From Bacteroidia bacterium (lineage in GTDB: Bacteria > Bacteroidota > Bacteroidia > B-17B0 > Aurantibacillaceae): a DNA stretch of 28,813 bases. The position numbers were made by a program, and so were the translations under genes. Location: contig JANPOX010000602.1 of NCBI GenBank assembly GCA_031428235.1, positions 1-28,813 on the forward strand. Reading direction: 5' to 3'. The notes below the pieces were generated by a model. It did no database searches. It was not told the origin of the DNA and was given only the letters and a program-made list of their open reading frames with translations. Each line of letters opens with the position of its first letter. Positions within the stretch are counted from its first letter, which is position 1. Shown here in pieces: positions 1-2,397 of this stretch.

Positions 1-1
1 A

Positions 2-70
2 CAAAATGGTATGGATAATATGAATGAAATTATAGAACGTGCTAATGGAAATAATGATGAATCAACTTAA
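2..70 (+). CDS. 3' end of an ORF truncated by the window edge (…QNGMDNMNEIIERANGNNDEST*)
   Basis: Open frame from base 2 to TAA at 68-70, 12 nt before the recombinase ATG. Too short to assign a product. Confidence 0.45.
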   Translation, partial: QNGMDNMNEIIERANGNNDEST

Positions 71-82
71 AAGTTAAATGTA

Positions 83-1645
83 ATGAAACAAAGAGCCATT
101 TTATACACTCGTGTATCTACAGATGAACAAAATAATGGTTATAGTCCTGCCGACCAAAAAGAAAGATTATACAAATACGCTGAACAAAATAATATTGAAG
201 TTATTGGATTTTACCACGATGACGAAAGTGGTAAAACATTTAATCGCCCTCAATGGATAAACATAATGAACTACCTTAAAAAAAACAGTAGCTCAGTTGA
301 TTTAATCATATTTATAAAGTGGGATAGATTTTCTCGTAATGTATCGGAGGCATATATCACAATCAATGCACTTCAAAAATACGGAGTAGAACCACAAGCA
401 ATTGAGCAACCGCTCGATTTTGAAATACCTGAACAAAAAATAATGTTGGCAATCTATTTAGCCGCTCCCGAAGTTGATAACGATAGGAGAGCATTAAATG
501 TTTTTCACGGTATGCGTAGAGCAAAAAAAGAAGGGCGGTGGTTAGGACATTCTCCAAAAGGATACATAAATTCAAGAGATGTTGCCAATAAGCCTATTAT
601 AGTTCCTGAAGGTGGTAAAGATGAAGCCATAATTAAAAAAGCATTTGAGGAATTTGCAAAAGGATTGTTCAATATCGAGGAATTAAGAAAATTATTACTA
701 AAAGATGGATTGAAGCTTTCAAAAAATGCGTTTGCATCCATGTTCAGAAATAAAGCATATATAGGGAAAATATTTTTACGTGCTTATAAAGATGAACCTG
801 CTCAATGGGTTGATGGAATTCATGAGGCAATAATTAGTGATGAGTTATTTTATGATGTGCAAGATGTGTTTTTAGGGCGAAAAAAAAATTATCCTAATAA
901 AACTAAAACAGTACATGATGAATTGCCATTAAGAGGTTATTTAGAATGTCCAAGATGTTCAAGACCATTAACGGGTTCGGCATCTACTGGCAGGTCGGGA
1001 GATAAATTTTATTATTACCATTGCAGTAAAGGTTGCAAGGAACGAATCAAAGCAGTTGAAACAAATGACGTTTTTGCAAATAAACTCAAAGCCCTACGAG
1101 TAAATGAACCAAGCATTGAAGTATTAATGAGGGGCTTAAAAGCACGTTTAAAATCTAAAACAGGCTATAATAAAAGTGAATTAGAAAATACGATTAAGGA
1201 TATTGAAAAAAACAAGGCACGTTTAAAAAATGCTCAAGTTTTAATGTTAGATGGTGAACTCAATCCAACGGAATATAAAGAACTTAAAGCTAAATTGGAG
1301 GAGGATATGATGCGTTTAACTATTGAGGAAAACAAATTGCGTTCCAATACCCTTTCTTACGACAAATTAATTGATTCTTGTAAGAATGTGGTTGTAAACC
1401 TTGATATTGCTTATAATAAGGCAGAAGCTTCAGTAAAACAACGCATAATTGGTTCGATATTCCCTGAAAAGTTCCAATTTGTAAATAATGAAGTTCGAAC
1501 CGCTAAAGTAAATGAAATGATTGACCGAGTTTGCACTAAAATCAAGGGATTGGAGGGAAATAAAAAAGGGCAACAATCATTTTATGAGTTGTTGCCCTGT
1601 AGAGTGGGAGATACAGGGTTCGAACCTGTGACCCTCTGCTTGTAA
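83..1645 (+). CDS. Large serine recombinase (resolvase catalytic domain + recombinase domain + zinc ribbon + coiled coil)
   Basis: N-terminal YTRVSTDEQ (catalytic Ser) and DRFSRN; RNKAYIG…GIHEAIIS recombinase domain; CPRC…YYYHCSKGC zinc ribbon; long C-terminal coiled coil. Confidence 0.93.
   Translation: MKQRAILYTRVSTDEQNNGYSPADQKERLYKYAEQNNIEVIGFYHDDESGKTFNRPQWINIMNYLKKNSSSVDLIIFIKWDRFSRNVSEAYITINALQKYGVEPQAIEQPLDFEIPEQKIMLAIYLAAPEVDNDRRALNVFHGMRRAKKEGRWLGHSPKGYINSRDVANKPIIVPEGGKDEAIIKKAFEEFAKGLFNIEELRKLLLKDGLKLSKNAFASMFRNKAYIGKIFLRAYKDEPAQWVDGIHEAIISDELFYDVQDVFLGRKKNYPNKTKTVHDELPLRGYLECPRCSRPLTGSASTGRSGDKFYYYHCSKGCKERIKAVETNDVFANKLKALRVNEPSIEVLMRGLKARLKSKTGYNKSELENTIKDIEKNKARLKNAQVLMLDGELNPTEYKELKAKLEEDMMRLTIEENKLRSNTLSYDKLIDSCKNVVVNLDIAYNKAEASVKQRIIGSIFPEKFQFVNNEVRTAKVNEMIDRVCTKIKGLEGNKKGQQSFYELLPCRVGDTGFEPVTLCL
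1561..1598 (-). terminator. Rho-independent terminator of the tRNA-Val transcript
   Basis: Inverted repeat AGGGCAACAA (1567-1576) / TTGTTGCCCT (1589-1598) with inner TCAT/ATGA pairing. Followed on the minus strand by a T run (plus-strand A run 1562-1567), starting 7 nt after the tRNA 3' end. Confidence 0.8.
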
Positions 1646-1679
1646 GGCAGATGCTCTGAACCAGCTGAGCTAATCTCCC
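1605..1679 (-). tRNA. trnV: tRNA-Val (anticodon TAC), CCA not encoded
   Basis: Minus strand GGGAGATTAGCTCAGCTGGTTCAGAGCATCTGCCTTACAAGCAGAGGGTCACAGGTTCGAACCCTGTATCTCCCA: 7-bp acceptor stem, D arm, TCTGC/GCAGA anticodon stem with CT-TAC-AA loop, GGTTCGAAC T loop. Confidence 0.97.
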
Positions 1680-1690
1680 AAATCGGGGTG

Positions 1691-1721
1691 CAAATATAAC
1701 GGCTTTTTTGAAATCTGCAAA
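1691..1721 (-). promoter_or_regulatory. Bacteroidota sigma70-type promoter of tRNA-Val
   Basis: Minus strand TTTG (1721-1718), 19-bp spacer, TATATTTG (1698-1691), matching the -33/-7 consensus TTTG-N19-21-TAnnTTTG, 11 nt before the tRNA 5' end. Confidence 0.85.
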
Positions 1722-1749
1722 AAAAATCCTATGTTTTTTTGAAAAAAGT

Positions 1750-2397
1750 CTATTTATTGTAATAATAGATCTTAATCTGTGCGGCATCCTTTAAAAAGTC
1801 AATTTTATGAACCGAATAACGGTGCACATTAAATCCTGTTCTGTACTTTAGATCTGCCAGTAATTCAACATCTTTCCCTTCCTTAATCAATTCAATGTTT
1901 TCATACAAAATGGTTTTCACACTTTCTTTCTTCATGAAGATATTACTTTCTAATAAGTAAGTAATGATTAAAACAACGGCGTTAATTCCAATTAGAAAAA
2001 TGTATTCTACATGGTCGGCCGTATCCTTCACTTTAGTAACTGCGGATACCAAACCAATGGCAATAGCTAAAAACAGGTAGGTCATGTCCTTAATGGCAAT
2101 TTCTTCTGTTTTATACCTTAACATACTAAATACTGCAAATAAACCAAAGGCCGCACCCATTGATAGATCAACTTTATTTAATAGGAAAGAAATTAAAAAG
2201 ATAATGATGTTGAATATAAAGTAAGTAAAAAACAGTTCACGGTGCTTATAGATTGGGTAATATATGAACCTAACTAAAATAAAAACAGCGGTTAAATCGA
2301 TCAGTAATCTAAAAAATATTTTCGAACTTAATTTTTGTAATTCTTCATAACCTGAAAAGTTGACTGTTGCATCGGTAGCAATTTGTAGTAGGATCAT
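1750..2397 (-). CDS. DUF4956-like integral membrane protein (MgtC/SapB-like TM region)
   Basis: Several TM segments; MGAAFGLFAVFSMLRYKTEEIAIKDMTYLFLAIAIG motif; sits directly downstream of a VTC-domain gene with an ATGA overlap, the usual pairing. Confidence 0.85.
   Translation of the reverse strand: MILLQIATDATVNFSGYEELQKLSSKIFFRLLIDLTAVFILVRFIYYPIYKHRELFFTYFIFNIIIFLISFLLNKVDLSMGAAFGLFAVFSMLRYKTEEIAIKDMTYLFLAIAIGLVSAVTKVKDTADHVEYIFLIGINAVVLIITYLLESNIFMKKESVKTILYENIELIKEGKDVELLADLKYRTGFNVHRYSVHKIDFLKDAAQIKIYYYNK

Follow-up and report, generated by a model that had tools for sequence, protein, structure and literature searches.

When a recombinase gene ends within the antisense strand of a host tRNA gene, does integration of the element that carries it change the protein that the gene encodes? 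This question is raised by a 28,813-nt stretch of Bacteroidia DNA (the window), which is the whole of contig C602 of a fragmented metagenome-assembled genome (MAG; 753 contigs, 4.12 Mb, 34.6% G+C, 7% contamination) and which begins with a putative large serine recombinase gene converging with a gene for tRNA-Val(TAC). Taken together, our comparisons suggest that window 1-1608 is very probably the right end of an integrative island, inserted at the 3' end of tRNA-Val(TAC) by its own serine recombinase, whose tail was swapped in the process. Throughout, G, L and C numbers denote genomes of the genus, loci and contigs, respectively, and ORF stands for open reading frame.

The recombinase ORF is predicted to encode a large serine recombinase (serine integrase). 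Its product matches PF00239 (Resolvase; E 1.5e-24, residues 5-153) and PF07508 (Recombinase; 34.7 bits, above the cut-off of 21.1), and its match to PF13408 (Zn_ribbon_recom), at 23.6 bits, is slightly below the cut-off of 25.3. Across 48 recombinase homologues, residues R10, S12, D14 and Q16 are invariant, as are the catalytic motif YTRVSTDEQ and the zinc-ribbon cysteines C289, C292, C314 and C318. The enzyme belongs to the serine family, so it is not the tyrosine integrase that characterizes classical tRNA islands. The sole tRNA called by ARAGORN in the window is tRNA-Val, on the opposite strand (Table 1), and codon 508 of the recombinase begins exactly at its 3' end. As a preliminary description of this DNA had proposed, the 3' half of tRNA-Val, reverse-complemented, reads as codons 508-520 (VGDTGFEPVTLCL), and the TAA stop at 1643-1645 is antisense to U33-U34-A35 of the anticodon loop, with the anticodon TAC facing GTA at 1642-1644.

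Table 1. Features at the recombinase end of the window, followed by the islands of the genus for which both junctions were solved
Feature	Position or size	Strand	Remark
Element DNA upstream of the recombinase, end of a small ORF	1-82	+	Contig begins here
Predicted large serine recombinase ORF, integrated-state reading	83-1645	+	520 aa; Resolvase, Recombinase and Zn_ribbon_recom domains
Codons 1-507 of the ORF, read from element DNA	83-1603	+	Empty-site homology begins at 1604
Predicted intrinsic terminator of tRNA-Val, also P arm of attP	1558-1597	-	Hairpin 1568-1597, U-run 1558-1567
tRNA-Val(TAC)	1604-1679	-	ARAGORN; body right of the core is host DNA, B' arm of attB
Common core GTGGG, last 5 nt of the tRNA, predicted to hold the 2-bp crossover	1604-1608		Only GTGGG is common to attL and attR in G001 and in G020
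End of the ORF read from host DNA: remainder of codon 509, codons 510-520, stop	1609-1645	+	Integrated state only
TCGAACC in the T-arm, likely zinc-ribbon-domain recognition motif of the B' half-site	1620-1626		
G001 island at tRNA-Val	22.5 kb		Core GTGGG; attL/attR solved
G001 island at tRNA-Leu(caa)	30.2 kb		Core GTACCC; attL/attR solved
G001 island at tRNA-Leu(tag)	19.2 kb		Core GTACAC; attL/attR solved
G066 island at tRNA-Ala	33.5 kb		Core GTGGA; attL/attR solved
G022 island at tRNA-Leu(caa)	39.8 kb		Core GTACCC; attL/attR solved

The boundary between element and host was located by comparison with relatives. Our homologue search covered 53 genomes of the genus, including that of the window, 25 of which carry homologues at E <= 1e-40; presence or absence of the recombinase is polymorphic across the genus. 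In six same-genus empty tRNA-Val(TAC) sites, a comparison that the preliminary description had advised, homology to the window starts at 1604 and extends only rightward. Left junctions, found by probing with native downstream flanks and terminators, complete the picture for five islands (Table 1), in which the left and right attachment sites (attL and attR) have only the last 5-6 nt of the tRNA in common. For the orthologue of the window's element in G020, attL is on G020:C338, where a distant serine recombinase, a hairpin and GTGGG are followed by CACTACTGACG / CACTACTGACGAAATATCGAAAC. Contig C374 of the window's own genome is 93.8% identical to G020:C338 up to its very last base, ending in ...GTGGGCACT; therefore, the own genome appears to hold the same tandem array, with the crossover falling within 1604-1608. 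The earlier proposal that a crossover left of 1643 gives the integrated and excised forms different C-termini is thereby upheld, as far as the aligned junctions can tell.

The same description had also led us to expect a second partial copy of 1560-1645 elsewhere in the genome. A blastn-short search of the own genome for window 1500-1760 returned no such copy, because the common core is only 5 nt long. Regular-expression and BLAST searches of the own genome for the element arm P' recovered only 4 nt of it, at the end of C374. An attempt to reach the own left flank through the flanks of relatives failed, since these flanks are not conserved.

A different location of the crossover is conceivable. 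In the classical geometry of tRNA islands, strand exchange would occur in the anticodon or T-loop, a long repeat of the tRNA 3' part would extend over the stop codon, and the two forms would have identical C-termini. G012, G003, G020 and G004 have partial tRNA-Val copies that break off at 1646, 1649-1650 and 1662 in window coordinates and are of the kind expected from this geometry. As attLs of the recombinase, these copies were nevertheless rejected: those of G020, G004 and G003 follow a serine-recombinase 3' end or hairpin, and that of G020, the sole one checked downstream, is succeeded by a tyrosine integrase gene (Arm-DNA-bind_5, Phage_int_SAM_5 and Phage_integrase). This arrangement indicates that the partial copies are serine-recombinase junctions that would have been displaced by later insertions of other elements in the anticodon loop. 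Additionally, for five recombinases located on large contigs, the 58 kb upstream contained no tRNA repeat of >= 11 nt, and the true attLs share only 5-6 nt with their attRs. We thus regard the classical geometry as very improbable here.

A further explanation is that no mobile-element junction exists at all, the recombinase being domesticated or decayed, or joined to the tRNA by metagenome mis-assembly. The fragmentation and contamination of the MAG are in keeping with this, as are the start of the contig 82 nt before the gene and the 96% copy of window 1-285, including a variant of the 5' end of the gene, at the end of own-genome contig C286. On the other hand, the same junction occurs in G020:C240, which is 93% identical in DNA to window 1-1650 and encodes a recombinase that is 95% identical, and it recurs in dozens of independent assemblies. 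The window's ORF is unbroken and retains every invariant residue, the element is polymorphic in the genus as described above, and complete two-ended elements were found, which leaves mis-assembly or decay scarcely credible.

For an island integrated at the very end of the tRNA gene, the reading that we prefer, a 2-bp crossover would take place within GTGGG, and the tRNA body to the right would be the host B' half-site. On the right-hand side of the core, the element arm (P') is similar to the arm formed by the tRNA (B'). Specifically, the motif TCGAAC is positioned 10-12 nt past the core in B' and 15-17 nt past it in P', an offset of exactly +5 bp in six of seven elements. Serine integrases have an attP/attB geometry in which the outer motif is shifted by +5 bp in attP. 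TCGAACC is, on this pattern, probably recognised by the zinc-ribbon domain, and the attP junction in the window organism is expected to read ...TGTAGA-GTGGG-CACTACTGACGAAAT... A spare inverted attP was absent from the four complete islands of 19-34 kb in which it was sought.

Integration at this position also affects how the tRNA gene ends. The element restores the last few nucleotides of the tRNA (at most 5) and supplies a replacement terminator. On the minus strand, the RNA of 1568-1597 is predicted to fold with -17.4 kcal/mol (z -5.8) and then runs into UUUUUUAUUU. The hairpin is element DNA to all appearances, because empty-site homology starts only at 1604 and each of the six empty tRNA-Val sites bears its own, different terminator. 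It is kept in recombinase orthologues, even in those that are 80-83% identical and reside at tRNA-Asn. In this organism, the predicted terminator of tRNA-Val is element DNA that also forms part of the recombinase ORF.

Since attP lies inside the ORF, integration swaps the tail of the recombinase. The core takes up codon 508 and the first part of codon 509, and the ORF stays open across the reconstructed attP in six elements, each time with a tail that differs from that of the integrated form. In the window and in G020, the integrated form ends in ...LLPCRVG-DTGFEPVT(L/P)CL before the stop (...RVGDTGFEPVTLCL), whereas the excised form of G020 would end in ...LLPCRVG-TTDEISKQLLDDIEILANLEPYLNIEPQ (...RVGTTDEISKQLLDDIEILANLEPYLNIEPQ, with the G020 P' arm). 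The corresponding predicted excised-form ends are STDEKSNQFLEDLSILYGLSNLISI for the G001 tRNA-Val element, ...SNRILEDLRKIR for the G066 tRNA-Ala element and ...INDILEDTRAY... for the G022 tRNA-Leu element, and an attP-like relic in G017 (L019) encodes STDEISKQLLEDIEILANLEPYLDI, all closed by a stop codon. The integrated and excised forms are, on these reconstructions, predicted to encode different C-termini.

The tail of the excised form shows features of its own. It is a conserved segment of ~25-28 aa, predicted to form an amphipathic helix, and carries the motif S-K/N-Q-L-L-E/D-D. The G020 and L019 tails differ at 8 nt, 7 of them at third codon positions, with 6 synonymous and 2 conservative changes (p ~0.003 for the third-position bias, by a simple binomial calculation on this one pair). 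Five or six database homologues have such LED-type tails; these proteins probably come from tandem arrays or circles, and in tandem arrays the left recombinase gains the P' tail of its neighbour in frame. In the AlphaFold2 model of one homologue with an LED-type tail (P0019, 72% identical), the zinc-ribbon domain ends at helix 478-490, followed by a disordered linker at 491-515 and a tail helix at 516-540 (predicted local distance difference test score, pLDDT, ~62-75). Helices 324-446, between the zinc-ribbon strands, form the coiled-coil insertion in this model, which is of the homologue and not of the window protein.

Is the overlap with the tRNA peculiar to this locus? The same MAG encodes six further recombinase paralogues, four of which run through an A-run and hairpin into the antisense of a tRNA or transfer-messenger RNA (tmRNA) end, namely the tmRNA 3' end on C171 (Rfam tmRNA, E 2.7e-14), tRNA-Ser(tga), tRNA-Met and a tRNA-Val-type core at the end of contig C374. 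At >= 21 of ~32 loci examined in the genus, the recombinase is convergent with a called tRNA, and ~25 homologues there continue through an A-run and hairpin into tRNA or tmRNA antisense; the tRNAs targeted are Val, Asn, Leu-tag, Leu-caa, Arg-ccg, Arg-tct, Phe, Ala and Ser, and at least 11 tRNA/tmRNA targets are in use within the genus. In the database set, the names of the homologues place the family in Bacteroidia, and the T-arm-antisense signature G-F/I/L-E-P is present in the tail of 94 of the best 120 of ~4,200 homologues (E <= 1e-30). These comparisons confirm the overlap with the tRNA antisense as a family trait and not chance. Viral contigs held no close relatives; their distant homologues (35-46% identity) have the hairpin-plus-tRNA layout and are mostly at provirus ends, and a clean circular attP sought among them was not obtained. 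A literature search for a paper on this Bacteroidota family of tRNA-targeting serine recombinases found none.

Two additional paralogues of the own genome, at C592:5145-6700 and C383:1023-2600, are ~25% identical and end in ...CTGA followed by GCGGAGTCGAAGT, with no tRNA called alongside.

The position of the stop, on which the preliminary description had laid weight, turns out to carry no special meaning. ORFs in the genus stop 12, 33, 36, 42, 48, 63, 69, 84 or ~103 nt into the tRNA, in every case at the first stop codon met in frame, with a frame relative to the tRNA end that is almost always identical. Judged from these relatives, the placement of the stop in the anticodon loop is incidental.

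Another account of the tails is neutral read-through, in which the enzyme is complete by ~residue 495 and everything later is irrelevant translation of terminator and att-site DNA, with no switch. Integrated-form tails are 4 to >30 residues long and finish wherever the first stop falls, the linker is of low confidence and disordered in the model of P0019, some elements lack an LED-type tail, and McMurdie et al. gave the same reading as a 'trivial explanation' for the Dehalococcoides recombinase DsiB (PMC3146451). Against it, the frame remains open for >= 35 aa (at least 35) beyond the invariant RT motif, through the AT-rich A-run and the hairpin to the core, in 116 of 118 homologues; the frame relative to the tRNA end is constant across clades that are only 27% identical; the substitutions in the tail are biased to third positions; and a similar tail motif recurs in distant clades. 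Neutral read-through is weakened by these conservation data, and we consider it a possible account that falls appreciably short of being the probable one.

Several observations also weigh against the tail-exchange reading set out above. The own left junction is assembled only 4 nt past the core, and for the excised tail the G020 sequence had to stand in. Not every element has the LED-type tail, since those of G054 and of both tRNA-Leu elements of G001 are different; its conservation rests on few sequences and one close pair; and part of it (S-N/K-Q) is dictated by the DNA motif of the att site. Integrated-form tails are extremely variable and look unselected. Furthermore, the excised form and its protein are reconstructions from sequence.

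With these points in mind, we propose the following for the exchanged tail. Integration would cut off the element-encoded helical tail of ~25-28 aa, and ~12 tRNA-antisense residues would replace it, up to the first in-frame stop, which in the frame of tRNA-Val falls in the anticodon loop. By analogy with the IntP and IntX forms of Mx8, the full-length form made from the circle may be the integration-proficient enzyme and the integrated copy an altered one, a suggestion that we hold tentatively, its chance being somewhat below even. It is rather unlikely, though worth stating, that the P'-encoded helix on its flexible linker of ~25 residues regulates the recombinase in cis, so that the position of attP would set a switch of directionality or commitment. 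A built-in switch for stability or directionality had been suggested in the preliminary description, and its one support, an indirect one, is the conservation of the excised-form tail. In such a switch, the tail helix could engage the coiled-coil or the zinc-ribbon hinge, as directionality factors do; the circle would yield an integration-proficient enzyme, and the integrated copy would yield a form biased against re-integration or toward excision.

Two small ORFs (68 and 72 aa, without Pfam match) are situated directly upstream of the recombinase on G020:C240 (L015:2379-2800), and the window starts inside the second of them. Both are candidates for a directionality factor or regulator. The cargo of the islands is neither of phage type nor of conjugative-element type. 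Contig C286 (L023), next to its recombinase variant, encodes a CI/LexA-like repressor with helix-turn-helix and S24 peptidase domains, SRAP (YedK-like), Lin1244_N, two receiver-domain (response regulator) proteins and two type IX secretion substrates, a cargo that hints at a possible SOS-response control of the island. Among the genes of the G001 tRNA-Val island are an RHS toxin and a HEPN/NTase pair.

The tRNA-Val(TAC) gene itself is a multi-element hot spot (window 1604-1679, with counterparts in L013, L014, L015 and L016). In its tandem arrays, a distant serine-recombinase element (27-30% identity) stands together with the window-type element and with tyrosine-integrase elements. The crossover of the tyrosine-integrase elements is near the anticodon loop, so that the tRNA 3' copies they leave behind stop at 1646-1662. 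On the other side of the tRNA, at window ~1745-1760, synteny from the upstream flank of tRNA-Val to the gene that follows (1750-2397) is interrupted in G006, G007, G012, G016 and G001 by ~6 kb insertions or a rearrangement, which makes this a second variable spot. In G001, the attLs of the tRNA-Leu(caa) and tRNA-Leu(tag) islands both come after the same module of ~60 nt (...CCAAAAACCCCTGATAAATAAGGCTTTATCAGGGGTTTTTCGGTTAA), a truncated copy of which lies ~22 kb further upstream of the Leu(caa) attL (G001:C24, near 1076141, 1053879 and 597637). The module directly abuts tRNA-Leu(caa) in four other genomes (L078, L080, L086 and L090) and may be the end of another element family.

Recombinases at tRNA-Asn(GTT) that are 80-83% identical to that of the window were found in L017 (G017:C81) and L018 (G020:C440). 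Their hairpin is nearly the same as that of the Val type, whereas the core is AGCTC instead of GTGGG; the Asn-type P' arm, preserved in the G017 relic, is 89% identical to the Val-type arm on G020:C338. This relic (L019:5187-5410 on G017:C137) is attP-like and lies between an ATP-binding cassette (ABC)-transporter/HlyD pair and a major facilitator superfamily (MFS) gene. It comprises the last 150 nt of a recombinase gene together with hairpin, core and P' arm, and bears an intact ORF of 56 aa whose end is the conserved tail; a decayed tandem array and a secondary site are both candidates for its origin. The Val/Asn pair is, to judge from these alignments, a natural example of target switching, and such closely related recombinases with near-identical P' arms would be useful for studying, or borrowing, target specificity in Bacteroidota.

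The directionality of serine integrases is an active structural and engineering question, and a tail exchange offers a testable pair of enzyme forms. If the proposed switch were true, it would be common to >4,000 tRNA-targeting serine integrases in Bacteroidota. The proteins deposited for this family end, with few exceptions, in host tRNA antisense.

Compared with known systems, the design has precedents. For myxophage Mx8, attP was described inside the integrase gene, which receives a new 3' end on integration, and the prophage form of the integrase stays active with modified specificity (PMC6070905, reviewing Tojo 1996 and Magrini 1999); Islander likewise lists the Mx8 integrase as extending across attP. 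The likeness to the window element lies in the placement of attP within the integrase coding sequence and in the change of the 3' end upon integration. The Mx8 integrase, however, is a tyrosine recombinase, distinct from the large serine recombinase with a 5-nt core described here, and the window element exchanges only the tail beyond the catalytic and DNA-binding domains. In Mx8, a far larger C-terminal segment is reportedly exchanged, and the target is said to be a tRNA-Asp gene.

The closest architectural match is DsiB of Dehalococcoides, a large serine recombinase adjoining the tmRNA 3' end, on islands that form tandem arrays (McMurdie 2011, PMC3146451); paralogue C171 of the MAG is likewise located at a tmRNA gene. 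For its stop codon, dsiB depends on ssrA or on the island that follows, and the authors speculated that dsiB is fully functional only on the circle (PMC3146451). The two systems differ in phylum and in their direct repeat, which is 20 bp there and 5-6 nt here. Dehalococcoides islands target only ssrA, unlike the range of tRNA and tmRNA targets in the genus of the window, and a conserved excised-form tail was not reported for DsiB (PMC3146451), unlike in the Bacteroidota family. They also have a small serine recombinase, DsiA, and a RecF/ParB/Mom-like module beside the integrase, whereas no second resolvase-domain gene was seen in the assembled parts here; among the ORFs upstream of the orthologous G020 recombinase, SRAP gave the only Pfam match.

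The preliminary description had pointed to SSV1 and BPs as precedents. What holds of this is that attP lies inside a gene, whose product is altered by integration; in neither system is there a serine recombinase or a tail swapped to tRNA antisense, and Mx8 IntP/IntX and DsiB are closer. SSV splits its tyrosine integrase in two halves, and BPs alters its repressor, not its recombinase. With A118/LI, Bxb1, phiC31 and SPbeta SprA, the window enzyme shares the domain order, the coiled-coil insertion, short att sites, a small core and the +5 bp offset. Such phage-type large serine integrases are known to insert at protein-coding or intergenic sites, with an attP external to the int ORF. Islander-type islands carry a displaced tRNA fragment of tens of nucleotides at the far end, in contrast to the 5-6 nt shared here, and the present islands escape tools that seek such fragments. 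Serine-family integrases were not known to target tRNA genes according to Islander (2014), an older statement, that serine integrases spare tRNA genes, which this family contradicts. Taken together, an integrase that spans its own attP is a design already known from Mx8 IntP/IntX and DsiB, and the recombinase of the window is a further case of it.

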